Assembly (NCBI GenBank): GCA_964540825.1 | Contig: CAZINT010000003.1 | Coordinates: forward strand, 83,250 to 147,249 | Reading direction: 5' to 3' | DNA length: 64,000 bases | Source of the DNA: an uncultured Gammaproteobacteria bacterium | Lineage (GTDB): Bacteria > Patescibacteriota > Patescibacteriia > Magasanikbacterales > GWA2-37-8 | In this document: positions 1 to 42,275 of the stretch, one piece after another | Layout of the letters: each line of letters opens with the position of its first letter | Position numbering within the stretch: position 1 is the stretch's first letter | Position numbers and translations under genes: made by a program | The notes under the pieces: generated by a model | What the model was told of the DNA's origin: nothing | The model's database searches: none | What the model saw: the letters and a program-made list of their open reading frames with translations, nothing else

Positions 1-1493
1 CGCACGTTGGCTTCATCATTTTTAATTTTTTCGAGGGAACCGATAATCGCTTCGAGCGATCCGAGCGTATCAGCTTTAATAACGACATTAAGCACTTTTT
101 TCTGATCTTCTTCGTCTTCGGATTCATTTTTCTGACTAATAACTTGCTTTTCAGCACCCGTCTGCTGAGTGCGTTTACTTTTCATATTTACCAACGTCGC
201 TGTGGCAGCCTGCGCAATATCCAAAATATCACCTACTTGCGGAGCAATCTTGAAACCCAAAATTCTAACCGGCGTGCTGGGCCCCGCTTCAGTAATATTT
301 TCAGTGCGATAATTTTTGAGCGCACGAACTTTGCCGTAAATTTCACCATTCACGACCAGCGGATCATTAATATGGAGCGTACCGGTCTGCACGAGAATCG
401 TTACCACAGCACCTTCACCTTTATCAACACGCGCTTCAATAACAGTTCCGGCAGCCGGGCGATTGGGATTGGCCTTGATAGTATCTTTATATAAATCAGC
501 CACTAAGAGGAGGGCGTCGAGTGTTTTGTCGATATTCAATTTTTGTTTAGCAGAAATTTCGACCATGACCGTGTCGCCGCCCCATTCTTGCGGAATAATG
601 TTGTACTGGCCAAGTGCAGCTCGAACACGTTCCACATCAGCGCCTGGTTTATCGATTTTGTTAATCGCAACGATGAACGGTAATTTAGCCGCTTTGATAA
701 TATTAATCGCTTCCACTGTCTGCGGCTTAATACCGTCGTCAGCAGCAACTACGAGAATTGCAATATCCGCAACTTTGGCACCGCGACTGCGCATAACCGT
801 AAACGCTTCATGACCCGGGGTGTCAATAAACGTGAGCGGAGTTTCTTCTTTAGAAATCGGATTGGTCCAAACAACCTGGTACGCACCAATATGCTGGGTA
901 ATACCGCCCGCTTCACGGCTGGCAACATTAGCACTACGAATAGAATCAAGTAATGTTGTCTTACCGTGGTCAACGTGACCCATGACAACAATAACTGGCG
1001 CACGCGGCGTCGTCATATCGCCAGCGAGCATGGTAGCCAAATTTTCAAGATGCGTATCTACGGCTTCTGCTTCGCCGCCGCCTGCTGCGACGGTAAACCC
1101 AAGTTCTTCGGCCAGGAGAACAGCAGTATCATGATCAATATTTTCATTCTGTGTAGCCAAAATACCATTTTTCATGAGCTCTAAAATAAGCTTGTTGATC
1201 GGCAAACTTAATTTTTCCGCTAATTCTTTTACTGTCAAAACACCTGGAATCGTAACACTCACCCCGCTTTCACGGCGAAGTTCCTTTTCAAGTTCTTTTT
1301 GTTTTTCTTTTTCTTGCCGCTCCCGCTCTTCTAACACAAATTTGATGCGTCGCCATTCACGCTGGATTTGCTGAGCAACACGATCATCAATCTTGACAGC
1401 ACGGGCACCAATATCAAAACCAAACTCCGGTAAAATAGTAAGGAGCTTTTGCGGGTGAATACGCAGCGAGCGCGCAAGTTCGGAAACATTCAT
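1..1493 (-). CDS. infB: translation initiation factor IF-2, N-terminal ~497 codons; the C-terminus runs off the window start
   Basis: Minus-strand translation from cat at 1491-1493 reads [10 protein letters not shown]..., and the G-domain string [17 protein letters not shown] was read directly around 960-1010. The gene is edge-truncated and therefore absent from the ORF track; the plus-strand ORFs at 144-1374 are antisense artefacts. Confidence 0.85.
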
Positions 1494-1563
1494 GAGAGAG
1501 ATCTAAAATGAGTAATTATTGCTTGAGTATAGCGCAGCTACTCCAAAAGGTCAATAAATAGCC

Positions 1564-1592
1564 TTGACAAAACCCTTAAAATACCCTACTAC
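1564..1592 (+). promoter_or_regulatory. candidate sigma70 promoter of high-GC cassette A (TTGACA-17-TACTAC; weak -10)
   Basis: TTGACA at 1564-1569 sits in the same ccTTGACAaaaccc context as the promoter at 2737, but the -10 is poor. The 10-bp perfect palindrome TTCGATCGAA at 1598-1607 lies just downstream. Confidence 0.35.
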
Positions 1593-1639
1593 TAACGTTC
1601 GATCGAAAATCGATCGCCACCAAAAAAAGGAGCAGACCC

Positions 1640-2467
1640 ATGAAGTTTATCCTGCCATTGCTTACCCTCGCCATTCTGGCCGCGGGGTGCACCGAAACAC
1701 CCATCACGCAGGACCGCGGGGAGTGCCAGCTGGACTCCCAGTGCGACGACACGACCACGCAGCTGTGCATCGCACGGCAGTGCGTCGCCTTCTCCACTTG
1801 CGACGCGCCCGGTGACGTCTGCGGGGTCGGGTACGAGTGCAAGGAGAAGGTGGGGTACCTCAAGGGTGCAACGCCCTACCGGTACGTCACCCGTCTGTGC
1901 GTCCCGGCCGGCACCACGATCATGCCGCCCGTGGATCCGGGATCGGGTGACATGTCCAGCGAGATACTGGACATGCGCAGCTCAGGCACGCCCGACCTGC
2001 GGGCAATCCTGCCCGACTGTCCGGCCGGCTCCATCGACGGCACCCCTCTGTGTGGCGGCGTGCTAACCAGCACGACGTGCCAGCCGCGCACTCGCTGCGG
2101 CGATGGTCGTCACGTGAAGAGCAAGGACGACTGCTCGGCCGACGCCAACAACTTCGCGGGCGCCGAAGGGAGCGACGGCTTCTGTACCAACGCAACCGAG
2201 GCGATCATGATCCAGGTCAACCAGGCGATGGGAGGAACCAAACTCCGCATCAACGCCGCCAACACTAGCCCCGATGTACCGATCGACGGCACCGTTCAGG
2301 TCATCAAGGGTATCGGCGCTTATGGTGGACTTGTGACGGTCAGCATCGTCGACAACGGCGGCAACCCGATCCTGAACTCGACCGGCACCTGCTGGAGCGT
2401 GTCCGGAGGGACCCCGAAGAAAGGGCCCATCAGCGACATCGGCGGCGTCGCCGGGTGCAGGAAGTAA
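1640..2467 (+). CDS. Cys-rich secreted protein, probable lipoprotein (high-GC cassette A; paralog of 2933..3880)
   Basis: 275-aa ORF with an AGGAG SD 7 nt upstream and a signal peptide ending in LAAGC (lipobox-like). It has about 18 Cys, including a CGDG-x6-DDC motif, and its C-terminal ~110 aa align with the ORF at 2933. Third codon positions are strongly GC-rich. Confidence 0.6.
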   Translation: MKFILPLLTLAILAAGCTETPITQDRGECQLDSQCDDTTTQLCIARQCVAFSTCDAPGDVCGVGYECKEKVGYLKGATPYRYVTRLCVPAGTTIMPPVDPGSGDMSSEILDMRSSGTPDLRAILPDCPAGSIDGTPLCGGVLTSTTCQPRTRCGDGRHVKSKDDCSADANNFAGAEGSDGFCTNATEAIMIQVNQAMGGTKLRINAANTSPDVPIDGTVQVIKGIGAYGGLVTVSIVDNGGNPILNSTGTCWSVSGGTPKKGPISDIGGVAGCRK

Positions 2468-2469
2468 GC

Positions 2470-2586
2470 AGCCCCCACCCCCCAGCTCTCCCTCGCCTAG
2501 GGAGACAATGGCTTCCGAGCTGAAGCCTGCGGGGAGTGGTACACCATTTGTTCTTTCAGGCACGCTTTCCTCGCGTGCCACTTCCC
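2470..2586 (+). repeat. 3' structured element, copy 1 (three consecutive hairpins; repeated at 3883..3990)
   Basis: Carries ccccagcTCTCCCtcgcctaGGGAGAca, a variable middle hairpin GCTTCcgagctGAAGC, and ggggagtgg...GGCACGCtttcctcGCGTGCCacttccc. The flanks are near-identical to the copy after the paralogous gene. Confidence 0.6.
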
Positions 2587-2736
2587 AAAATATTTTTATT
2601 GGTATTCACTAGAAGTATATTGAGAAGAACTACCAACGCTTTTCACTCAAAAATGAGGCTGTGGTTTACTATAAAAATACCTAAAATAAAAAGCTGCTTA
2701 TATTAGCCAAATTTTTAGAACCACACCGAGATACTC

Positions 2737-2765
2737 TTGACAAAACCCCAAAAATGTGCTAGCAT
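2737..2765 (+). promoter_or_regulatory. sigma70 promoter TTGACA-17-TAGCAT with TGn extended -10 (cassette B)
   Basis: Read directly as TTGACAaaaccccaaaaatgtgcTAGCAT. The spacer is nearly identical to that of the promoter at 13353. Confidence 0.55.
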
Positions 2766-2932
2766 TGTTCGTTCCTGAAGTTAATCAGGAGGTTCTTTAA
2801 TAAAGCGTCTTTGGCACCAAAAAGCCTCTATTTTAGAGAAGTTTTTTAGTGTCAAAGACCAGTACCACTTTATGAGAGGTACCCCTCTCAATTGGATCCA
2901 GGCTTTCTGTCCCGCAACCAAGGAGAACGATC

Positions 2933-3880
2933 ATGACCACGAGCCGCATCCTTGCCCGCCTCGGCATCCCCGTCCTCGCCCTCACCGGCGTCCTCGGCGT
3001 CGCATGCTACCGCACCGACAAGAACTACTGCATGAGCTCGGCCGACTGCGCCGGCATGGGGGGCTACTGCTCCCTCCCCGCCCACAGTTGTCTGTCGCCG
3101 CAGTGCGACGTGAAGAGCAACAAGCTCCTGGCGCGCGACCAGACCAAGATGGGCGAGATCGTCACGACCTACAGCCCCTACAGCTGCAACCCCGGTGACG
3201 TCTGCGACTCGGTGAAGGGCCTCTGCCGGCCGCTCACCTGCGCCGACGGGATGGCCTGCCCCGACGGCTCGACCTGCAACAAGAGCAAGGGGATGTGCGA
3301 GACGATCTTCGTCCCGCCCGCGCCGGACATGGCGCAGGGCGACATGAACATCTCGCCCGACCTCGCGCCGCCCGCCGACATGACCCCGGGCGACCTGGCC
3401 GGCCTCCCGAACTGCCCCGACAAGGCGGTCAACGGCGGCCCGTCCTGCAACACGGACATCAGCGGCACCACCTGCAGGGCGGTCTTCCCGGCCTGCGGCA
3501 AGGGCTTCCGGGTCGCCAAGAAGGCGGACTGCCACACCTCGGCCCCGAATTTCGCGGGGCAGGAGGGCTCCGACGGCTTCTGCCTATCGGCCAACGCCGG
3601 GATCGAGATGCAGGTCGCCACGAAGCTCGGGGCGACCAAGCTCCAGGTGAACTCGGCGGGTGCCCCGGCCTACGAGGACATCGACGCCGGCGGCAAGCCC
3701 CAGCTCTTCGAGAGCGCCGGGGCTTACAACGGCCTGTTCTCACTCTTCCCGGTCGACGGGTCCAACAACCCCATCAACGGGACGGACGGGAACTGCTGGA
3801 TCCTCTCCTCCATCTCCGGCGCCCGGAAGACGCCGTTCACCGACCTCGGCGGCGTCAAGGGCTGCAAGATGGAGCCCTAG
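2933..3880 (+). CDS. Cys-rich secreted protein, probable lipoprotein (high-GC cassette B; paralog of 1640..2467)
   Basis: 315-aa ORF with an AAGGAG SD and a signal peptide ending in GVAC. It is Cys-rich (CGKG-x6-ADC motif) and its C-terminal domain is alignable to paralog A (DC...NFAG.EGSDGFC...GC). It has a 167-nt structured leader. Confidence 0.6.
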   Translation: MTTSRILARLGIPVLALTGVLGVACYRTDKNYCMSSADCAGMGGYCSLPAHSCLSPQCDVKSNKLLARDQTKMGEIVTTYSPYSCNPGDVCDSVKGLCRPLTCADGMACPDGSTCNKSKGMCETIFVPPAPDMAQGDMNISPDLAPPADMTPGDLAGLPNCPDKAVNGGPSCNTDISGTTCRAVFPACGKGFRVAKKADCHTSAPNFAGQEGSDGFCLSANAGIEMQVATKLGATKLQVNSAGAPAYEDIDAGGKPQLFESAGAYNGLFSLFPVDGSNNPINGTDGNCWILSSISGARKTPFTDLGGVKGCKMEP

Positions 3881-3882
3881 TC

Positions 3883-3990
3883 CACCCCAGCTCTCCCCCG
3901 CCTAGGGAGACACTAACCTCTTAAGAGAGGTCTTTGGGGAGTGGTACACATTGTTCTTTCAGGCACGCTTTCCTCGCGTGCCACTTCCCA
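3883..3990 (+). repeat. 3' structured element, copy 2
   Basis: Outer hairpins are the same as copy 1. The middle hairpin is replaced by CCTCTtaagAGAGG, a different sequence that still folds as a hairpin. Confidence 0.6.
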
Positions 3991-4078
3991 CTACTTTTTT
4001 ACCCCTCCCCGGTAGAAACGTGATAGGAAGACATGCTACCAACTCACCAAACTAAGTTTCGGCTAAGCTTAGGTAACG

Positions 4079-4107
4079 TTTGACACCTCACCCTCTGCCT
4101 GATATAC
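4079..4107 (+). promoter_or_regulatory. sigma70 promoter TTGACA-17-TATACT, probably for rny (about 255-nt leader)
   Basis: Read directly as TTGACAcctcaccctctgcctgaTATACT. Confidence 0.5.
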
Positions 4108-4334
4108 TTACCTCAGTAACTTTATTTATCAAGATTTTGAGCGAAAACTCTGGTTAGAAGAAAAGTCCGAAAGTATTCTGCTACTCTACGCATTTCGAAG
4201 CTTATTTATGTCATTTACCCCTCAATTCCTTAGAGACAATCTTCTTTGGAAGGCAGTACTCCCTGCCCGAGTTTTGTAATTGACCGCTAAATCTTTTCTA
4301 ACCTGCGAGGCCGATTTAAATGCCTCTACCGAGT

Positions 4335-4356
4335 AATCCTCAAATCTTTGAGGATT
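4335..4356 (+). promoter_or_regulatory. perfect 10-bp-arm hairpin that sequesters the rny SD
   Basis: AATCCTCAAAtcTTTGAGGATT: the 3' arm contains GAGGA and is followed by a T-rich stretch and then ATG at 4366. Confidence 0.4.
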
Positions 4357-4365
4357 TTTATTTTT

Positions 4366-5898
4366 ATGGTTCTTAAATACCTTATTGCGGGTATCATTAC
4401 CCTCGCCGGTACGGGGCTTGGCCTCTTAGCTGGGTACCTCCTGCGCAAAAAAATTGCCCAGGCGGAAGCGAACTCAATCGAAGCGCGCGCTGACAAACTC
4501 TTAATCGAAGCAAAGAACAAACAACAGGAACTCCTCTTAGAGGGCAAAGAAAAAGCGACCAAAATACTCGACGAAGCCAAGCAAGAAGAAAAACAACTTC
4601 GCCAGGAACTGCGCACGATCCAAGAACGCCTGGAGCGGCGCGAAAACACCTTTGACCAAAAACTGCTTGAATTCCAAGATAAAGAAAAGCAGCTCCAAGA
4701 AAAAATTGAACGCGTCAAACAAATTAAGCAAGAAATTGAAAACCTAAAAGGTGAACAACTCGCTAAACTTGAACAAGTCGCTGCACTTACCCGCGAGGAA
4801 GCCAAAAATGAACTTCTCGCGAAAGTAGAAGAGCAAAGCAAAACAGACCTCATGGGCCGGATTATTAAACTGGAAAAAGAATCATCTGAAGTCTTTGAAG
4901 ACAAGGCTCGCGATATTATTACCGACGCTATCCAGCGCTGCGCTAGTAGCCATGCCGCCGAAACTACGTCGTCGATTGTTCATATTCCCAGCGAAGAAAT
5001 GAAAGGGCGTATTATCGGTAAAGAAGGCCGCAACATCAAAACCATCGAAAAATTAACGGGTTGTGAAATTATTATTGACGACACACCTGAATCGATTATC
5101 GTGTCGGGCTTTTCCCCGATCCGCCGCCAGGTTGCCAAACTCGCCATTGAAAAACTGATTGCCGACGGCCGCATCCAGCCTGCCCGCATTGAAGAGTTTG
5201 TTGAGAAAGCCAAACAAGATTTAGCGCTTGATATTAAAAAAGCCGGTGAAGAAGCGCTCTACAAAATGGGCATTACCGGTATTGACCCCAAACTCGTCAA
5301 CATTGTTGGTCGCCTTAAGTATCGCACCAGTTATGGACAGAACATCATGAACCACTCGACCGAAGTAGGTTATCTCGCTGCCCTCATAGCTGCCGAGCTT
5401 GGACTTGATGAAGCCAAAGCTAAAAAATGCGGCTTCTTCCATGATATTGGAAAATCGGTTGACCAAGAAACCCAAGGCTCACACCCAGAGATCGGCCACA
5501 TGATCCTCAAAAAGTTCAACATGGACGAGGATATCTGCCAGGCAGCACTCACGCACCACAACGACAAACCGTATAATATCTATTCGTCAGTTGCGAAAGC
5601 TGCTGATGCTATCTCGGGCGCTCGTGTTGGTGCCCGCCGCGATACGTACGAACAATATATTACGCGCCTCGAAGACCTCGAAAAAACAGCCGGATCATTC
5701 CCTGGCATCGACAAAGTGTACGCCATTCAGGCCGGTCGCGAAGTACGTGTGTTTGTTCGCCCAAATGAAATTGATGACTACGCTGCGTACCAGCTTGCCA
5801 AAGACATTGCTCACAAGATCGAACAAGAACTTAAATACCCTGGCGAAATTCGTGTTTCACTCATTCGCGAGACGCGCGTTATCGAATACGCTCGCTAA
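4366..5898 (+). CDS. rny: ribonuclease Y
   Basis: N-terminal TM helix, a coiled coil, a KH motif (IGKEGRNIKTIEKLTG) and an HD domain (GFFHDIGK). The ORF-track start at 4348 is a TTG inside the hairpin, so ATG 4366 is preferred. Confidence 0.9.
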   Translation: MVLKYLIAGIITLAGTGLGLLAGYLLRKKIAQAEANSIEARADKLLIEAKNKQQELLLEGKEKATKILDEAKQEEKQLRQELRTIQERLERRENTFDQKLLEFQDKEKQLQEKIERVKQIKQEIENLKGEQLAKLEQVAALTREEAKNELLAKVEEQSKTDLMGRIIKLEKESSEVFEDKARDIITDAIQRCASSHAAETTSSIVHIPSEEMKGRIIGKEGRNIKTIEKLTGCEIIIDDTPESIIVSGFSPIRRQVAKLAIEKLIADGRIQPARIEEFVEKAKQDLALDIKKAGEEALYKMGITGIDPKLVNIVGRLKYRTSYGQNIMNHSTEVGYLAALIAAELGLDEAKAKKCGFFHDIGKSVDQETQGSHPEIGHMILKKFNMDEDICQAALTHHNDKPYNIYSSVAKAADAISGARVGARRDTYEQYITRLEDLEKTAGSFPGIDKVYAIQAGREVRVFVRPNEIDDYAAYQLAKDIAHKIEQELKYPGEIRVSLIRETRVIEYAR

Positions 5899-6384: not shown

Positions 6385-6458
6385 GCGGTTGTCGCTATGC
6401 CAAAGGTTTCAAACTACATCTTTTTGAAACTCATCAAGAACGATACTGGAGGGAAAAA

Positions 6459-7028
6459 ATGAAAACTGACATTACACTGTTAAGCACCATGCTCCGCGAA
6501 TTTGCGCTCATTGCCCTCCGCGAGCGGTGCGAAAACGGTGTCCCAGTCCGGGCCGATACGCCCAACGAGCTCATGTCCGAGTTTGCGGCGGTATGGAGCA
6601 CCCTGGACCATGGGACCTGTGACTACCGGCAGTTCTGCGAAATTTTTCAGGCGGTGGCCGAAGCCAGTCTACGTGACGAAAACCAGTGCGCCGTACTCGC
6701 GCTCACCACTCTCTCGTTCATCACCTACGTCGGTCCCAATCGAGCGCGCACCATACTCCAGGCCATCTACCGAGAAAGCCGTACCGCGAAGGCTGGCTCC
6801 TACAACCAGCTGGTCTTTTACCTCGGCGCGCTGGAAGCGATGAGTCTCGCCGGTTCACCAGTCACGATTCTCGAGTGGGGCGTGGATGAAGCGTACAAGC
6901 AGCTCGGAAACGAAGTCTCGCGTGAAAGCGTCTTCCTGAGCTTGTGGATCCAGGCACTCAGCAATCGAGCAGTAACGCTTTCCGAAGAACCCATGCCGGC
7001 CGACCGCTCCGGCGTACTCGCACTCTAA
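6459..7028 (+). CDS. hypothetical protein (GC-elevated cassette C)
   Basis: 189-aa ORF with a GGAGGG SD 6 nt upstream. The same-region ORF 6502..6843 is in another frame and has no SD. No recognisable motifs. Confidence 0.5.
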   Translation: MKTDITLLSTMLREFALIALRERCENGVPVRADTPNELMSEFAAVWSTLDHGTCDYRQFCEIFQAVAEASLRDENQCAVLALTTLSFITYVGPNRARTILQAIYRESRTAKAGSYNQLVFYLGALEAMSLAGSPVTILEWGVDEAYKQLGNEVSRESVFLSLWIQALSNRAVTLSEEPMPADRSGVLAL

Positions 7029-13203: not shown

Positions 13204-13352
13204 CGGTTTTCCACAAAAAACTTGGCTAAATGAGCCAAGTTTTTTTGTTTTTTGCATATTTTTTCCCCACACGAAAAGCATTGTTGACAGTTCAAAAATA
13301 TGCTATAGTGGCGGCATTGTGCAAAATATTTTTACTGGTACGGACAGCTATC

Positions 13353-13381
13353 TTGACAAAACACCAATTTTGTGCTAGCGT
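13353..13381 (+). promoter_or_regulatory. sigma70 promoter TTGACA-17-TAGCGT with TGn (cassette D)
   Basis: TTGACAaaacaccaattttgtgcTAGCGT, with a spacer near-identical to the promoter at 2737. Confidence 0.55.
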
Positions 13382-13480: not shown

Positions 13481-13831
13481 ATGGCAGGTCATCGCTATAC
13501 TCGGGGCTTCCGTTTGAGCGAGCCCCTCATGAACGTGGTGCTCGATGCGCACCACCTCTTGAACGGAACGACTGAGGTGTTTCGCACCCACATGGACCGC
13601 GTTCTTGAAGCGCTGCGGGAAGGCCATCTTCACGAAGTTGATTACTTCGTGAACCAGGCGGTTGACGTGCTCAGCCAGGTTGGCCACGAGCTGTCCGATG
13701 AGCACAAGACAGAGATCGCGAACTTCGCGAACTTGGTTCGTAGCCGCGCCAAGGCCCTCGCTGCCGAGATCGAGAGCGATCTCACTGCCGAGCACCGGCC
13801 CGAACCCCTTTCTTACTACGCCCACGACTGA
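13481..13831 (+). CDS. hypothetical protein (high-GC cassette D)
   Basis: 116 aa with a GGAGG SD 7 nt upstream. The antisense ORF 13466..13894 was rejected because it has no SD or promoter. Confidence 0.5.
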   Translation: MAGHRYTRGFRLSEPLMNVVLDAHHLLNGTTEVFRTHMDRVLEALREGHLHEVDYFVNQAVDVLSQVGHELSDEHKTEIANFANLVRSRAKALAAEIESDLTAEHRPEPLSYYAHD

Positions 13832-17261: not shown

Positions 17262-18269
17262 TTGGAACCCAAAGAACAGGCCTTTCAGCTCCATCGGCGT
17301 CTTGATACCGTGCGTGGAGGAAGCGACCCGGAGTCCCGGGCCGACATCTTCCTCAGCGTCCTTGCCTCGGAAAATCTCGCTCTCATCCGGCGACTCCCCG
17401 AGCTCTGCCCGCTGTCGCCGGACGAACAATCCCTCGTGGTCGGCTGGGCTGAACAGGCCGCAGCCAGCGAGGAAGTGAGCCGGCGGGACTTCGTGTTCCA
17501 CCTACTCATCAACTGCGAGATTGAGCCGACGCTCATCCTGACGCTCCTCGAGTCGCACCAGACCTTCAGCAAAAGCGTGCTCAGCCGAATCGAAGCGACG
17601 CTTCTCACGGGAGAAGGCTCGGTCCAAGAGCGGGCTGTGACCCTGCTCAAAGAGAGCGCGGAAGAATTGCTCGGCTCGAGCGATATCAAGAAGCGCGATC
17701 GCGGCAAGCACATGCTCATCACGAGCGCCGGTGCGAGCAGCGACTGGCAGGCGCTCGCCAAGCGCCTTAGCACCAGCGACATCATCGATCTGCGTCAGCA
17801 CGTGCTTGAACGCTTTCTTGATGAATGCCGCGACATGGCGTCGGTGAACCTTTTCGCTGCGAATGTTGCCACGTGGTGTCTCGGGCAGCTGGAACGCTTC
17901 AGAAAGTGCGATCGGCAGGAGGCAACCTGGGCACACTGGGTAGTCACCTGCTACGAACACGTAGGCGATGAAGCAAAGCTCAAGAGCGCGGCGCGAGCGA
18001 TCACCAATCACTTCGGCAGGCAATTGCCGCAGTCGCTGAGCTTCCGCACGAGCAAGTACCTGCCACAGTCCAAACCGGTTAGCCAGACAAACTTTTCGTG
18101 GGAACTGCCACGAAACACTACCGCTTCCGAAAACGAGCCGACGCCCGAGTCGGTTGACGAAGCACTCCGAAACGACTGGGCCATTAGCAAAGACAACGGC
18201 AGGCAAGTCGTTCTGACGAAAACGGGAGAGAACGGCAAGCGTCGTTCCATCACCCTCTACAGGAGCTAA
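17262..18269 (+). CDS. hypothetical protein (high-GC cassette E), TTG start
   Basis: 335 aa with an AAGGAGG SD 4 nt upstream of TTG. The antisense ORFs 17285..17785 and 17502..18206 were rejected as GC-driven artefacts. Confidence 0.5.
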   Translation: MEPKEQAFQLHRRLDTVRGGSDPESRADIFLSVLASENLALIRRLPELCPLSPDEQSLVVGWAEQAAASEEVSRRDFVFHLLINCEIEPTLILTLLESHQTFSKSVLSRIEATLLTGEGSVQERAVTLLKESAEELLGSSDIKKRDRGKHMLITSAGASSDWQALAKRLSTSDIIDLRQHVLERFLDECRDMASVNLFAANVATWCLGQLERFRKCDRQEATWAHWVVTCYEHVGDEAKLKSAARAITNHFGRQLPQSLSFRTSKYLPQSKPVSQTNFSWELPRNTTASENEPTPESVDEALRNDWAISKDNGRQVVLTKTGENGKRRSITLYRS

Positions 18270-25438: not shown

Positions 25439-25467
25439 TTGACAGATCGGCCTTTTTATGCTTTGAT
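25439..25467 (+). promoter_or_regulatory. candidate sigma70 promoter TTGACA-17-TTTGAT (cassette F)
   Basis: The -35 coincides with the TTG 'start' of ORF-track entry 25439, so that start is probably spurious. Confidence 0.4.
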
Positions 25468-25543
25468 CATGTGTCTGCTTTGGCAAAGAAACCAAACAGA
25501 TACAAGCCTTCTCAACGCTACGAACGAAGTAGGTACAGCGTCA

Positions 25544-26608
25544 ATGTGTCAGTTACCGCTTCTTGAGTGCTATGGAAAATACCCAGGGCACCTCGTTGTG
25601 CCGCCAGAAACAAAATTTGGCTTTATCGGAGGAGATTGCTGGCGCCGCCTCTGCGCCACCCCTGTGTACAGCAGCATGCGTGATATGTCGCGGATGCACG
25701 AAGCAGCTAACGCGGTTGCCAGTGCAACCAACGGTGTCCCGCTCAGCATTCTGACCGTAGGCACCGGCGACGCACAACAGGAAGAGCGGTTCATCCGCTC
25801 GCTCGCCACCCGAAGCCCGATCGAGCGCATCTTGCCCCACGGCATCGATATGGCAGAAAAAATGCGCGGACTTGAACGGCTTCGCACAATTCCGGCACAG
25901 TTCACGCCGCTCGCGGTGGGAGGGAACTTCGACGACAACATCGTCCAGCGCTCGCCCTACGAAACGCCCTGGCATCCGCGCATCGAAGAAGCGTCGAATA
26001 ACCTGACCCTCAGCTTCGGCAACACCTTTGGCAACTTACGCCCCGCCAACCTTGCGCACGTGCTCGAGAAAATCCGGCTGGCCCAACAGGTGTACGCCTG
26101 GGACGAACCGAACAAACCCGGGCACCTCCTTATTGAGTGGACGGCACCCTACACGGGCGACCGTCGCCCTGGCATGACGCAGCTCGATCGGACCACAGAA
26201 ATCGGTGCTATCGAATACGAGTGGTACGAGCGGTCGGCCAGACACTTCTTCGGATTGAATAGCCATCATACAGTAAAGATCAGCTTCGAAACCTTCGGGC
26301 CTTACCCTGACGGCGGCTACGAAATTATCGGGCTGGCCAGCCCGATGGAACACCCTCAGCCGCACGAGAAAGTTATCGTGGCACACTTCCTGCGCTACAG
26401 CCCCGAAGCCATGGTGACAATGGCCCGACTCGCCGGTTTCGTTCCGGTCAACAACGCTCTTTTTCAGAACGGTCCGTCGACCATCATGATCTTTCAGACC
26501 GTTAACGCCGCCACTGCCGGGGACTCCAGCGATATCAAGTCGTCGCTGGGGCCCCGGGCCCCCATAAGCCGCCTTACCAAGCGTAAGGAATCTTCAGGGG
26601 CAGCCTAA
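25544..26608 (+). CDS. EgtD-like (Methyltransf_33-like) SAM-dependent methyltransferase, tentative (high-GC cassette F)
   Basis: ILTVGTGDA glycine motif and LSFGNTFGNLRP resemble the EgtD signature FLGSTIGNL. The start at 25544 is the first ATG downstream of the promoter and is uncertain. Confidence 0.45.
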   Translation: MCQLPLLECYGKYPGHLVVPPETKFGFIGGDCWRRLCATPVYSSMRDMSRMHEAANAVASATNGVPLSILTVGTGDAQQEERFIRSLATRSPIERILPHGIDMAEKMRGLERLRTIPAQFTPLAVGGNFDDNIVQRSPYETPWHPRIEEASNNLTLSFGNTFGNLRPANLAHVLEKIRLAQQVYAWDEPNKPGHLLIEWTAPYTGDRRPGMTQLDRTTEIGAIEYEWYERSARHFFGLNSHHTVKISFETFGPYPDGGYEIIGLASPMEHPQPHEKVIVAHFLRYSPEAMVTMARLAGFVPVNNALFQNGPSTIMIFQTVNAATAGDSSDIKSSLGPRAPISRLTKRKESSGAA

Positions 26609-31615: not shown

Positions 31616-32503
31616 ATGACCCAGCGTCGCCACCTCGCCACACCCCAACCGAACCTGTTTACCGTCCGCGTGAAACGGATCGCGGCTAACATCAAGCGCT
31701 GGCTTGCCAGGCACGGTGTCACCGCGCCCGTCACAACAGCGATCACGCTCGGGAGCGGTCTCGGCGGCTACGGCTCCGACCACCCCTCGGCTATCACGAT
31801 CCCGTATGCGAAGGTCGGCCTGCCAAAGTGCGGCATGGTCGGGCACGCCGGAGTCCTCCGCTTCATGCAGGTCGGCAAGCACGGCATCCTCATCTTCGAC
31901 GGACGTGCGCACGGGTACGAAGGCTATCCGATCGAGTCCGTGGTCATGGCCGTGCGCGCTGCGGCGTTCGCGGGCGCCACGACGCAGGTCATCACCTGCG
32001 CGTCGGGCGGCATCAACCCCAACTACGTTGCCGGCCAGCTGGTGGTCATCAAAGACCACCTGAACCTGATGGGCCGGAACCCCCTCACGGGCAGGAACGA
32101 TCAGAAGCATGGACCGCGCTTCCCCGACATGACGCAAGCGTACGATCCGGAACTCCGCACCCTCGCCGGCAACGCCGGAAAGGCCATCGGTCTCACCCTC
32201 GCCGAGGGTGTTTACGCGGCGCTCAGCGGCCCCAACTACGAGACTCCGGCCGAGGTCCGCATGCTCAGCATCCTCGGCGCTGACATGGTGGGCATGTCCA
32301 CCGTGCCCGAGGTGCTCGCGCTGCGTCACCTCAGCGTCCGCGTCCTTGGCATATCGTGCATCGCCAACAAGGCCGCGAGCACCAACCAAGAGCCGCTCAG
32401 CCACGACGAAGTGGTCGCGGCCGGACGCAACGCCGCACCCCGCTTCAAGATGCTCCTCGACGGTATCGTCGAATCGCTCCCCCTCCCCGAAACCACGGCC
32501 TAA
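31616..32503 (+). CDS. purine nucleoside phosphorylase (PNP/MTAP family)
   Basis: GPNYETPAE and GADMVGMSTVPEV are hallmark PNP-I/MTAP motifs. AAGGAG SD. Strongly GC-rich relative to its neighbours. Confidence 0.8.
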   Translation: MTQRRHLATPQPNLFTVRVKRIAANIKRWLARHGVTAPVTTAITLGSGLGGYGSDHPSAITIPYAKVGLPKCGMVGHAGVLRFMQVGKHGILIFDGRAHGYEGYPIESVVMAVRAAAFAGATTQVITCASGGINPNYVAGQLVVIKDHLNLMGRNPLTGRNDQKHGPRFPDMTQAYDPELRTLAGNAGKAIGLTLAEGVYAALSGPNYETPAEVRMLSILGADMVGMSTVPEVLALRHLSVRVLGISCIANKAASTNQEPLSHDEVVAAGRNAAPRFKMLLDGIVESLPLPETTA

Positions 32504-40008: not shown

Positions 40009-40046
40009 CCATTTCTTGTATTTTTAGCCTAATTAAGCCCTTTATC

Positions 40047-40075
40047 TTTACAAAAGGGCTTTTTTGTGCTATTAT
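40047..40075 (+). promoter_or_regulatory. promoter-like module TTTACA-17-TATTAT with TGn (cassette J), embedded in a hairpin AAGCCCTTT/AAAGGGCTT
   Basis: ctttatctTTACAaaagggcttttttgtgcTATTAT is about 85% identical to the module at 41457. Confidence 0.45.
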
Positions 40076-40155
40076 TTTCTGTTTATCCGTGGGTCTTTCT
40101 CTCTGCCTGCGGAAAACCTGTTCATTAACAAAAGAGAGAGACAAGGATCGCGAAC

Positions 40156-41277
40156 ATGCCGAATGGAAAAACCGATCTGCTCGCTCCGGGTGAACTGGGT
40201 GCTGTCATCGTGACAGCGCTCGGTTTCAAGAACAATCGCTCCGCAGCCGATTACCTCAAGAGTACGGAATACCAGCAGCGTTTCTCGGCGGCGTCAGACG
40301 CCTACCAGCCGATCGACTTTGGCGGCGGTACCTACGTACCGCTTTCACCCAAAAACAAAGGACCACTCGATCTCACCGGCCTCATGGAAGAGACTCGTGG
40401 CGACCAGGAGCGACCCACCTGGATCCCGCTCTTCAAAGCTGGCACGCCGAAGCCTGTCGGAGCCTACAACGTCGCTCTCGTCTGTGACGGAGCGGCGCGG
40501 TTCTACAGCCGCATCGGCGCCAACACCCGTGTGAAAGGGTGGATGTACCGCATCATCTCGGGAGAGCGCGACTGCTACGCCGTGTGGGCGCGAACCGACG
40601 GACAGCCGCTCCGCGGGGCCATGGGCAACTCGGTAGATTCGAAGCGCTTCTACGCGACGCAGTCTGCCCGCGGCCTCATCTACGCCCGCGAGGCACTCTT
40701 CGACCACGTCGGCACGATGGTGGGCTACGCCACCACCACGACGCAGATCGAGGTCCGCGTGCGCGACCAGGACCCCAAACTCTGCGACAACCTGCAGGTC
40801 TTCCGCAAGACGAGCGTCAGCTACAGCTACGACCGCGAGAAGCATGATCCGCCCCGGCTGAACGACTTCGGCCAGGTTTGGCACCCCCTCATCGAGCGTG
40901 CCTACAAATGTTTCGAGCTGTACTGCATGCCCCTGCCGGAGGAGCTACAACACCGACAGCTCTTCTTCATAGAGCAGCTCGCCAAGAGCAAGGCTGACCA
41001 GCGGACATACCCCAACTTCGACAGCAAGATCGGGAAGCTCGACTGGCAGCTAGCGCTCGACAAGGTCGACGAGCCCTGGCAGCTCAGCGTCGTGATCCGG
41101 CGTTACTGCAACAGCCGCTTCGACAGCTCCCCCTGCTGCAATGACACCACCTCCAGTCGCTGGACCAAGATGCTTAGCCAGTACGTCTGCTCCACCGAGC
41201 GTCGCACCAAGCTTCAGGAGATGGTGAACAGCTACTGCTCGGTCGTCGATAGCATGTGGAACTACAGCGGCGACTAA
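40156..41277 (+). CDS. hypothetical protein (high-GC cassette J)
   Basis: 373 aa with an AAGGA SD. GC-rich third positions. The antisense ORFs 40345..40884 and 41050..41307 were rejected. Confidence 0.5.
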   Translation: MPNGKTDLLAPGELGAVIVTALGFKNNRSAADYLKSTEYQQRFSAASDAYQPIDFGGGTYVPLSPKNKGPLDLTGLMEETRGDQERPTWIPLFKAGTPKPVGAYNVALVCDGAARFYSRIGANTRVKGWMYRIISGERDCYAVWARTDGQPLRGAMGNSVDSKRFYATQSARGLIYAREALFDHVGTMVGYATTTTQIEVRVRDQDPKLCDNLQVFRKTSVSYSYDREKHDPPRLNDFGQVWHPLIERAYKCFELYCMPLPEELQHRQLFFIEQLAKSKADQRTYPNFDSKIGKLDWQLALDKVDEPWQLSVVIRRYCNSRFDSSPCCNDTTSSRWTKMLSQYVCSTERRTKLQEMVNSYCSVVDSMWNYSGD

Positions 41278-41317
41278 CCCGCGCTCCACTAACGGTTGGT
41301 CTAACAACCAATCACCA

Positions 41318-41430
41318 CCTCTTCCAAACCCTGGGGGAGCGCACTACAGTTTTTCTAAAAATATTAGAACCACTGTAGTCTCCCCCAGATTATAAAAATA
41401 ACTCCTTTTTAGGGAGTTGTTTTTTATATA
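41318..41430 (+). repeat. 3' module copy 1: 17-bp interrupted stem CTGGGGGAG-cgc-ACTACAGT...ACTGTAGT-CTCCCCCAG plus terminator AACTCCtttttaGGGAGTT-T6
   Basis: Near-identical to 42166..42275. Confidence 0.6.
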
Positions 41431-41456
41431 CAAAAGCAACACCCGCCACCTTTATC

Positions 41457-41485
41457 TTGACAAAAGGGTTCTTTTGTGCTATACT
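41457..41485 (+). promoter_or_regulatory. sigma70 promoter TTGACA-17-TATACT with TGn (cassette K)
   Basis: ctttatcTTGACAaaagggttcttttgtgcTATACT. Confidence 0.5.
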
Positions 41486-41576
41486 CACTTGTTGTTTTGA
41501 TAGCTTTTTGTCTGCATAAATAGTGCGTATTATAAAGCTTCTCAAACTGAAGCTCACAATTGATTGGAGGACAGAG

Positions 41577-42149
41577 ATGAGTCGTCTATCCCAGAAGGCA
41601 CGTCAGCACCGCGCGAACCTTCGCGACCTCAGCGATCGTATCGCCGAAGATAATGAGGTGGACCACCGAGAAGCCGACAACACCCTCGAGGACGATGACT
41701 TCGACGACGCACCCCACCCCTTCGACAGAGCAAAGGAGCTCGTCGATTGGACTGGCCGCAAGCGGTCCGGCGACATGAAGGGCATCTCCTTCTGCGGATA
41801 CTCCACGCGAGTAATCGCCTTCGAGCTGAACCACCAGGATCGGCTCACCGAGATCGCCGAGGAGAACTACCCGGCCTCCGCCGACGAGGACCCGGATGTG
41901 CACCGCTACTACGCAGAGCATCAGCGCCAGATCGACCGAGAGCTCGACTGGCTCTGGGCCAAGCGGGGAGAGTACCGGGCGCAGGGCGCACACGAAGTCT
42001 GGGTGTACCTCAACGGCAAGAACATCGAGGACCACCCGTACCGGTCGTGGGTCCCTCGCATGCCCGGTCTCCCGGCCCAGGAAGACTCCGACTTCGACCG
42101 CCACTACCACCCGTGGGGCGGCAACCTCTACTCCTTCAGCTACGTCTAG
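41577..42149 (+). CDS. acidic hypothetical protein (high-GC cassette K)
   Basis: 190 aa from ATG 41577, with a GGAGG SD 7 nt upstream. The ORF-track start at 41523 is further upstream. The antisense ORF 41586..42281 was rejected. Confidence 0.5.
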   Translation: MSRLSQKARQHRANLRDLSDRIAEDNEVDHREADNTLEDDDFDDAPHPFDRAKELVDWTGRKRSGDMKGISFCGYSTRVIAFELNHQDRLTEIAEENYPASADEDPDVHRYYAEHQRQIDRELDWLWAKRGEYRAQGAHEVWVYLNGKNIEDHPYRSWVPRMPGLPAQEDSDFDRHYHPWGGNLYSFSYV

Positions 42150-42165
42150 CACTAGCCGAAGACCA

Positions 42166-42275
42166 TCCTCTTCCACCCTGGGGGAGCCGACTACAGTTTT
42201 TCTAAAAAATATTAGAGCCACTGTAGTCTCCCCCAGATTATAAAAACAACTCCTTTTTAGGGAGTTGTTTTTATG
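42166..42275 (+). repeat. 3' module copy 2; its terminal hairpin overlaps the last codons of dnaE on the opposite strand
   Basis: CTGGGGGAG-ccg-ACTACAGT...ACTGTAGT-CTCCCCCAG then AACTCCtttttaGGGAGTTgttttt. The dnaE stop lies at 42257-42259, inside this hairpin. Confidence 0.6.

Follow-up and report, generated by a model that had tools for sequence, protein, structure and literature searches.

Evidence for a selected five-helix RNA element behind hypervariable lipoprotein genes in Candidatus Magasanikbacteria

Introduction

What does a conserved RNA structure do behind genes whose coding regions change far faster than the sequences that flank them? The question is raised by a 64-kb stretch of DNA (from contig CAZINT010000003.1; called the window below) from an uncultivated groundwater bacterium of Candidatus Magasanikbacteria, in the candidate phyla radiation (CPR, Patescibacteria). 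In the window, two tandem genes for Cys-rich putative lipoproteins, ORF1 and ORF2, lie in the gap between infB and rny, and each is followed by a copy of the same noncoding element. The evidence described below supports selection on the element as a structured RNA of the plus strand and argues against a passive leftover of duplication. We believe that it may best be explained as a cis-acting module of the 3' untranslated region (UTR), or of an intercistronic region, that contributes to mRNA stability or processing for these hypervariable genes, and we give this explanation about an even chance of being right.

CPR bacteria are thought to live attached to host cells. Few have been cultivated, and as a result their surface proteins and RNA-level regulation are almost unknown. 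We found no literature on lipoproteins of Magasanikbacteria or on 3' elements of this kind.

Results

A five-helix element behind two lipoprotein genes

The element is about 150 nt long and contains five helices (P1 to P5). By folding, RNAalifold and comparison with relatives, we placed it at 2475-2627 (copy 1, behind ORF1) and 3882-4030 (copy 2, behind ORF2). A preliminary description of the locus had reported the same element of about 110 nt, with three hairpins, after each open reading frame (ORF). That the element is shared was borne out, but its length was not: P1 and P5 had been missed, and ACTTCCCA, taken as the end of the element, is the 5' foot of P5. The two genes and the two copies are laid out as follows.

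1640-2467, plus strand: ORF1, a 275-aa Cys-rich putative lipoprotein; GC content 0.65, GC content at third codon positions (GC3) 0.84; lipobox Cys17
2475-2541, plus strand: copy 1, three-way junction (minimum free energy (MFE) folds, RNAalifold consensus, pair table)
2475-2483 with 2531-2539, plus strand: copy 1, P1, CCACCCCCC with GGGGAGTGG
2487-2492 with 2500-2505, plus strand: copy 1, P2, TCTCCC with GGGAGA
2510-2527, plus strand: copy 1, P3, GGCTTC-cgagct-GAAGCC
2542-2558, plus strand: copy 1, pyrimidine-rich single-stranded linker (..CACCATTTGTTCTTTCA), unpaired in every fold
2559-2579, plus strand: copy 1, P4, hairpin GGCACGC-tttcctc-GCGTGCC
2581-2627, plus strand: copy 1, P5, long hairpin CTTCCCAAAATATTTTTA ... 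TAGAAGTATATTGAGAAG (P4+P5 fold z = -5.0; covariation count)
2933-3880, plus strand: ORF2, a 315-aa Cys-rich putative lipoprotein; GC content 0.69, GC3 0.97; lipobox Cys25
3882-3946, plus strand: copy 2, three-way junction (folds, pair table)
3' strand at 3936-3944, plus strand: copy 2, P1, CCACCCC with GGGGAGTGG
3892-3897 with 3905-3910, plus strand: copy 2, P2
3916-3931, plus strand: copy 2, P3, ACCTCT-taag-AGAGGT
3947-3982, plus strand: copy 2, linker (3947-3961) and P4 (3962-3982)
3984-4030, plus strand: copy 2, P5, long hairpin CTTCCCACTACTTTTTTACC ... GGTAGAAACGTGATAGGAAG (fold z = -5.9; covariation count)

P1 is a clamp helix. Its C-rich 5' strand begins 2-8 nt past the stop codon in all three complete copies (the two in the window and one in the sister species L003, described below), and its 3' strand is GGGGAGUGG. 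P1 closes a three-way junction that contains P2, the first hairpin of the preliminary description, and P3, the middle hairpin, which varies. Next, a linker of roughly 17-19 nt, in which the stretch TGTTCTTT is conserved in L003, leads to P4 (the third hairpin of that description) and then to P5, a hairpin of 19-21 bp with a T-run in its AU-rich arm and GGAAG or GGGAGG as its 3' foot.

With the middle hairpin set aside, identity between the copies is 91% on the left and 96% on the right, compared to 60% for the DNA encoding the C-terminal halves of the proteins; in the alignment, the differences between the copies are concentrated in P3. Conserved flanks of 28 nt and 37 nt, reported as repeat families D3 and D5 by a repeat finder, occur exactly twice each in the 64 kb, versus 0 expected from shuffles. 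The outer hairpins (P2 and P4) are conserved in both copies, as had been described, and the middle hairpin differs in sequence (GGCTTC/GAAGCC versus ACCTCT/AGAGGT) but folds in both.

When aligned and folded, both window copies were more stable than shuffled sequences, with plus-strand z from -3.3 to -4.8. The element as first described gave z = -4.0 and -3.3 for the two copies. The five-helix architecture, found in all complete copies, gave z = -3.9 and -4.8 in the window and -8.0 in L003, and P4+P5 gave z = -5.0 to -7.7 across four copies. The RNAalifold consensus recovered P1-P4.

Selection on the plus-strand RNA

The element is also present at the same locus in two sister species. We gathered relatives by using the RNase Y of the window as query against species-representative genomes, which yielded 80 loci; the records with informative titles are Magasanikbacteria, Patescibacteria or Parcubacteria. 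The closest RNase Y sequences are those of L003 (97% identity) and L004 (95%), and L004 is the sister of L003. The infB-rny locus of L003 has a complete element, with P2 as TCTTCC/GGAAGA (a compensated change from C-G to U-A), a third P3 sequence (GGTCTC-taac-GAGACC), a U-G pair in P4, and a perfect P5. The element of L004 is partial and keeps P4, with a compensated change from A-U to G-C and a longer stem, and P5.

The helices have been kept across these orthologues by compensated changes on the mRNA strand, in a sample of 3-4 sequences. In a MAFFT alignment of P4+P5 made from sequence only (four sequences), 93% of cells pair, versus 43-56% when the partners are slid. Six pairs changed on both sides, a number reached by 0/500 shuffles. 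In a manual alignment of the three-way junction, 60/61 cells pair and seven pairs changed on both sides: one in P2, and six in P3, which is different in all three complete copies. The count for P3 should be discounted because the stems are CT/AG repeats, in which a register shift of 1 nt gives much apparent change. MAFFT misaligns P2 and P3 of L003, and we therefore confined the tool-based pair count to P4+P5.

The element has changed less than neutral sequence. At four-fold degenerate sites of rny, which we used as the neutral level, the window is 55% identical to L003 and 44% identical to L004. Outside P3, the element of the window is 77-82% identical to that of L003, well above the neutral 55% (binomial p about 1e-6).

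Selection appears to act on RNA of the plus strand. In 4/4 copies the plus-strand z was better than the minus-strand z. P5 has an invariant U-G pair, and P1 and P4 of L003 have further U-G pairs; on the opposite strand these would be A-C mismatches, which argues for RNA on the plus strand. Based on the pairing, the strand and the identity, we conclude that the unit of selection is a plus-strand RNA that is constrained in both sequence and pairing. The earlier argument from covariation to a functional RNA thus stands for a selected RNA (P2, P4 and P5 are compensated, and the sister species agree), but its count for P3 depends on register.

An element without a function of its own, whether left over from duplication or simply part of a GC-rich terminator region of the usual kind, is very unlikely. 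In favor of this view, the window has just two copies, and both follow paralogous genes. Neither L003 nor L004 has ORF1, and copy 1 is therefore most simply derived from a tandem duplication that took in the 3' flank. Such an origin would leave unexplained the identity between species well above neutral (p about 1e-6), the compensated changes that maintain the helices, the lack of a U-tract after P4 or P5, and the analogous clamps found behind unrelated lipoprotein genes in other species.

A role at the level of DNA seems unlikely to us, though less so. The conserved flanks would be homology anchors for allele replacement or gene conversion, and the hairpins would be kept by template switching within a strand. 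The coding region is almost unalignable between species whose RNase Y sequences are 95-97% identical, as such replacement would predict; the two window copies are more alike than orthologues, P3 differs between them as a block, and the 91-96% identity outside P3, versus 60% nucleotide identity for the genes, suggests homogenization. Template switching would give perfect Watson-Crick arms, however, and the conserved G-U wobbles and the better folding of the plus strand argue for RNA. Conservation above the neutral level extends to the single-stranded linker and the loops, the copies have no recombinase core sites (GTTRRRY, RYYYAAC), and there are no silent donor copies in the 64-kb window.

A candidate mRNA stability or processing module

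The ancestral position of the element is intercistronic. In L003 and L004, the order is a promoter and 5' UTR of the ORF2 type, with its hairpin; a GC-rich, Cys-rich lipoprotein gene of which ORF2 is the positional orthologue; the element; and a second, unrelated GC-rich lipoprotein gene (7050-7700 in L003, 7010-7700 in L004). Between the two co-oriented genes, no promoter-like sequence was evident by eye and there was no U-tract terminator. The window has only the junction sequences from either side of the second gene (3991-4079); the gene itself has been deleted.

4031-4079, plus strand: junction remnant to the second GC-rich lipoprotein gene (comparison with L003 and L004; the blastn block resumes at 4007)

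If the element is a stability or processing module, the junction of P1, P2 and P3 directly behind the stop codon would be a barrier to 3'-to-5' exonucleases and would define and protect the 3' end of the lipoprotein message. The exposed pyrimidine-rich linker would be the likely site of endonuclease entry, and P4-P5 would cap the 5' end of the downstream fragment, as with intercistronic stabilizers of polycistronic mRNAs. Together with the conserved promoter and 5' UTR, the element would then frame coding DNA in which replacement or diversification far outpaces change in the flanks.

The preliminary description had offered a 3' UTR stability or terminator element or a small RNA (sRNA). The data do not discriminate among a stability or processing element, a terminator and an sRNA; the canonical feature of a terminator is absent. 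A consensus scan for Rho-independent terminators called none at the element. After P4 comes ACUUCCC plus 0-6 bases and then the T-run (8-14 nt from P4), which is paired within P5; no U-tract follows P4 or P5. Because the T-run is an arm of P5, it does not make a canonical terminator.

A conditional terminator or attenuator also appears unlikely. In this scheme, GGGGAGUGG(Y)AC would pair either with the C-rich strand behind the stop codon, forming P1, or with the downstream GUGCCACUUCCC. A terminating ribosome would cover the 5' strand of P1 and favor the downstream helix, thereby coupling the downstream gene to translation of the upstream one; the short distance from the stop codon to P1 (2-8 nt in all three copies) fits this. 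The 9-bp helix GGGGAGUGG:CCACUUCCC is perfect, costs only 2-6 kcal/mol relative to the MFE when forced, and is the MFE structure once the 5' strand of P1 is removed. In L003, a U-to-C change turns a U-G pair of this helix into C-G, and the helix is directly followed by UUUAUUUUUUU, the sole case that would fit a terminator; in the window, 5-6 nt separate the U-run from the alternative helix, a noncanonical spacing, and the terminator scan was negative. We rated the switch low because CUUCCC is used by P5 in 4/4 copies, with covariation, and L004 lacks the GGGGAG strand yet keeps CCACUUCCC, paired in P5.

We consider it quite improbable that the element is a trans-acting sRNA, released from the 3' UTR by processing, with P3 as a copy-specific seed or identity hairpin. 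It is a discrete, highly structured module with a conserved sequence, and P3 differs between copies, as a specificity element might. Such an RNA would be hard to reconcile with copies that are all linked to the locus, with the lack of an internal promoter in the promoter scan, and with the failure to match any Rfam family at E of up to 10. Among the unpaired stretches, the best conserved is just a run of pyrimidines, and there is no conserved single-stranded seed with an identified target.

Several observations weigh against a stability or processing module. Searches for further copies found the orthologous locus and nothing beyond it in the collections searched: a covariance model built from the three complete copies and run over 1.09 Mb of related loci gave E = 2e-25 for L003 and 0.14 for L004 and nothing else credible, and scans of public genome, metagenome and viral contig collections with exact and degenerate patterns gave no further copies. 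Only three complete copies and one partial copy therefore exist in the data searched, and a family of 3-4 members is too small for a formal covariation test. L004 has two other hairpins in place of P1-P3. The covariation in P3 depends on the alignment register, and the MAFFT register gives fewer changes. Template switching between arms is another way in which hairpins can be kept perfect, in this case as DNA. That the two window copies are nearly identical suggests gene conversion in addition to selection, and their differing only in P3 looks like replacement of a segment, or gene-converted flanks, rather than stepwise compensatory drift.

Two candidate matches from the searches were rejected. 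The covariance model (R1) gave a weak match in L076 (E = 0.003, on both strands), where a GC-rich palindrome lies over the end of an unrelated minus-strand ORF in another context. A looser pattern (GGGAGTGGYAC, a gap, and GTGCCACTTCCC) matched seven metagenome loci, all unrelated perfect hairpins.

The element matched no described RNA family, and several other known classes were rejected. Rfam 15 gave only three tRNAs in the window at the gathering score and nothing over the element at E up to 10 (1400-4400), and ARAGORN found no tRNA-like or transfer-messenger RNA gene. Dispersed repeats of the repetitive extragenic palindromic (REP) or bacterial interspersed mosaic element (BIME) type and miniature inverted-repeat transposable elements were rejected based on the exactly two copies in 64 kb, the only part of this genome that was searched, with only orthologous-locus copies in 1.09 Mb of related loci. 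For an integron attC site, neither R'' (RYYYAAC) nor R' (GTTRRRY) occurs in 2460-2640 or 3873-4045, and the neighbors are infB and rny. We noticed no integrase among the ORFs that we read, and no search of the window was aimed at one. A small ORF within the element was rejected based on a 2-nt indel between the copies that shifts the frame.

The lipoprotein genes and their leaders

ORF1 and ORF2 share a C-terminal domain and have diverged N-terminal halves, as the preliminary description had it. In BLASTP, the C-terminal halves are 41% identical over 191 aa (E = 6e-37) and the N-terminal halves do not align. Both proteins are rich in cysteine, with 17 cysteines in the 275 aa of ORF1 and 21 in the 315 aa of ORF2. 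The lipobox-like signal peptides that had been proposed matched the PROSITE-type pattern (PS51257-type) in both: LLTLAILAAGC at Cys17 in ORF1, and LALTGVLGVAC at Cys25 in ORF2, in which the lipobox (GVAC) is atypical. Judging by signal peptide and lipobox, both are putative bacterial lipoproteins, substrates of Lgt and LspA. Their base composition is foreign to the genome: GC3 is 0.84-0.97, versus 0.40-0.50 in five housekeeping genes.

The proteins have no detectable relatives outside this locus. We found no relative of ORF1 or ORF2 in Pfam, NCBIfam, PHROGs or PDB sequences. A word-indexed protein search with ORF2 matched nothing but ORF1 and/or ORF2, a four-sequence profile used in that search matched only ORF1, and HMMER, run in full on 1.84 billion cluster representatives, again returned only the two proteins. 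The homologues in L003 and L004 come from assemblies that are evidently not in those protein libraries; with tblastn, L003 and L004 were the only related loci in which the C-terminal domain was found, in both cases between infB and rny as in the window, and none of the viral loci encodes it. An AlphaFold2 model of the domain from a two-sequence alignment had a predicted local distance difference test (pLDDT) score of 41.5 and was not usable.

Between the conserved flanks, the coding region is nearly unalignable across species, with 28-34% aa identity in the C-terminal domain and none in the N-terminal part. The L003 gene contains a run of 100 N (6398-6497) bordered on each side by the same ~55 nt. 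Scaffolding across an internal repeat probably produced this artefact, and the length of the L003 protein is therefore uncertain. We rejected a target of a diversity-generating retroelement: a repeat search of the whole window found no template-like copy of the coding region, and the flanking genes are infB and rny, although no search for a reverse transcriptase was made elsewhere in the genome.

The sequences upstream of the two genes are also conserved in part.

1564-1639, plus strand: weak promoter-like site TTGACAAAACCC (1564-1575) and short 5' leader of ORF1 (sequence comparison)
2737-2765, plus strand: promoter of ORF2, TTGACA, 17 nt, TAGCAT, with TG (promoter scan)
2737-2932, plus strand: promoter and 5' UTR (about 165 nt) of ORF2, conserved in L003 and L004

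The promoter and 5' UTR region of ORF2 is 73% identical to that of L003 over about 215 nt and is conserved in L004 too. Near the 5' end of this leader is a conserved hairpin (2772-2791, CCTGA-loop-TCAGG) with a variable loop, followed by TTCTTT; its counterparts are at about 5432-5452 in L003 and about 5567-5587 in L004. It could be a 5' stabilizer or an attenuator. In the leader of ORF1, a different hairpin, CGATCGAAAATCGATCG, occupies the corresponding place (1600-1616). ORF1 has its -35 box and the bases next to it in common with the promoter of ORF2 (repeat family D4 and the alignment), and the promoter scan did not call the ORF1 promoter because its -10 box is poor.

A promoter of the type CTTGACAAAA-N9-TKTGCTA precedes five GC-rich ORFs in the window (2736-2761, 13352-13377, 40046-40071, 41456-41481, and a variant at 1564). 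Searching the window with up to 2 mismatches gave 4 matches, versus 0.09 expected, and no match elsewhere. The spacers of three copies contain the inverted repeat ACAAAA-N6-TTTTGT, which resembles the operator of a common regulator.

The infB-rny hotspot and other GC-rich islands

The gap between infB (minus strand, end near 1493) and rny (4348-5898) is a hotspot. At least 10 related genomes have GC-rich islands there, with many lipobox proteins, often tandem paralogues. An analogue of the clamp behind the stop codon (CCUCCCC, a variable hairpin, GGGGAGG) follows several GC-rich lipoprotein genes at this locus in L005, L006 and L009, and in L066 a canonical terminator accompanies a P4-like hairpin and a long hairpin. 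Tandem paralogous GC-rich lipoproteins occur at the hotspot in L005 (3482-4279 and 6729-7553) and L006 (1792-2730 and 3079-3600), each pair with its own shared C-terminal motif and near-identical 3' elements; those of the L005 pair are identical over the 170 nt inspected save for the last few bases.

The downstream neighbor rny is preceded by a strong promoter-like site of its own (TTGACA-17-TATACT at 4080-4108), and its leader (about 260 nt; region 4080-4365) is 86% identical to that of L003. Two terminator-like hairpins in this leader (4252-4267 and 4335-4356) may be an attenuator for RNase Y; the second, which has a T-tract, extends over the TTG listed as the start (4348) and lies just upstream of an ATG at 4366.

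A second GC-rich tandem pair is present in the window (40043-42275). Its ORFs (40156-41277 and 41577-42149) encode proteins without detectable similarity to each other. Both units have a promoter of about 30 nt in common (40046, 41456), and each ends in a shared 3' element (41328-41424, 42175-42272) that is about 100 nt long and consists of a long hairpin, CTGGGGGAG..ACTACAG / CTGTAGT..CTCCCCCAG, and then a canonical terminator. Since the proteins are unrelated and the promoter and 3' element are common, conserved untranslated frames around ORFs of foreign composition are a property of this genome and not only of the two paralogues.

ORF-sized GC-rich islands occur at 6459-7028, 13481-13831, 17262-18269, 25439-26608, 31616-32503 and 40156-42149, with GC content of 0.58-0.69 and GC3 of 0.70-0.97 in a genome of about 46% GC. 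One encodes a purine-nucleoside phosphorylase (PNP). Recent transfer from a sequenced GC-rich donor was rejected: the best non-self relative of the PNP gene, from a close relative, is 85% identical, and no further relative of that gene exceeds 60%. The composition of the islands may stem from old transfers, from biased gene conversion or from another cause. A chimeric assembly was ruled out, as the joining of an AT-rich promoter to a GC-rich ORF is also found in independent Logan contigs and in several metagenome-assembled genomes. The locus is present in runs SRR11567520 and SRR11567528.

Two further observations concern the related loci. Short GC-rich palindromes, CCCTCCCC-N4-6-GGGGAGGG, occur in many Magasanikbacteria loci independently of GC-rich genes (L018 at about 4470-4500, L025 at about 6690-6715, L031, L032, L037, L064 and L075) and may be a dispersed repeat family of the phylum. 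Many contigs that are Magasanikbacteria by RNase Y identity and gene order (L003-L006, L008, L009 and others) are titled "uncultured Gammaproteobacteria bacterium", which appears to be a labelling problem of that assembly project.

Discussion

The element is a lineage-restricted case of a known type of feature, attached to an unusual gene family. Known 3' and intercistronic stabilizers include the pufBA-pufLM hairpins of Rhodobacter capsulatus, the malE-malF REP of Escherichia coli, and the 3' "positive retroregulator" of cry in Bacillus thuringiensis. Like the element described here, these have stable GC-rich hairpins directly behind a coding region and no obligatory U-tract. In L003 and L004 the element likewise lies between two presumably co-transcribed genes, where the upstream segment would be expected to be protected from 3' exonucleases. 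Unlike them, it is a five-helix module with a three-way junction, confined to a single locus and lineage rather than dispersed like REP.

Other systems are similar in part. Intrinsic terminators also have a GC-rich hairpin (here P4) in the 3' UTR with a T-run nearby, but here the T-run is base-paired in P5 and no U-tract follows P5. With integron attC sites the element has in common a structured segment (about 60-140 nt in attC) after each ORF, a structure that is kept over sequence, and a variable center; in contrast to integron cassettes, there are no R''/R' cores, each gene has its own promoter, the spacers are AT-rich and about 150-350 nt long, and the G-U pairs indicate RNA rather than single-stranded DNA. 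Phage morons resemble the locus in having a GC-rich ORF between its own sigma-70-type promoter and a structured 3' end in an AT-richer genome, a layout that the second pair at 40-42 kb repeats with unrelated proteins, but this locus is on a chromosome with housekeeping neighbors, the proteins match no PHROG, no viral contig has the domain, and the 3' end is not a simple terminator. In the pilin loci of Neisseria, the downstream Sma/Cla repeat is the conserved 3' repeat of an antigenic-variation locus. There too, a conserved noncoding segment lies beside a hypervariable surface-protein gene with signs of concerted evolution; here, however, no silent cassette array was found, the evidence for recombination is indirect, and the covariation is of the RNA type.

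A bolder idea, and most probably not the right one, is that surface lipoproteins of this clade have a dedicated "expression frame" in the infB-rny gap, where the conserved promoter and 5' UTR and the five-helix RNA bracket exchanged coding regions and the RNA is an active part. The coding regions could be exchanged or diversified above the neutral rate while being kept at GC3 of up to 0.97 in a genome near 0.45. The RNA could act, for example, as a translation-sensing switch through the competing partners of GGGGAGUGG, or as a processing or localization tag with P3 as its identity hairpin. If true, episymbiotic CPR bacteria would have a variable-surface-protein system of a new kind.

A structured 3' UTR is an ordinary kind of feature, and we therefore regard the significance of the element as moderate. 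The locus stands out in that its untranslated flanks are conserved while the coding region turns over more quickly than the synonymous sites of housekeeping genes. Its protein family, whose base composition is foreign to the genome, is also unusual in that no relative could be detected among some 15 billion predicted proteins. If the element controls the fate of the mRNA, it would offer a handle on the expression of host-interaction genes; if it does not, the hotspot would still be a useful marker of strain-level variation. In either case, the locus provides a concrete, conserved and previously undescribed RNA structure on the fastest-changing surface lipoprotein genes of a Magasanikbacteria lineage.

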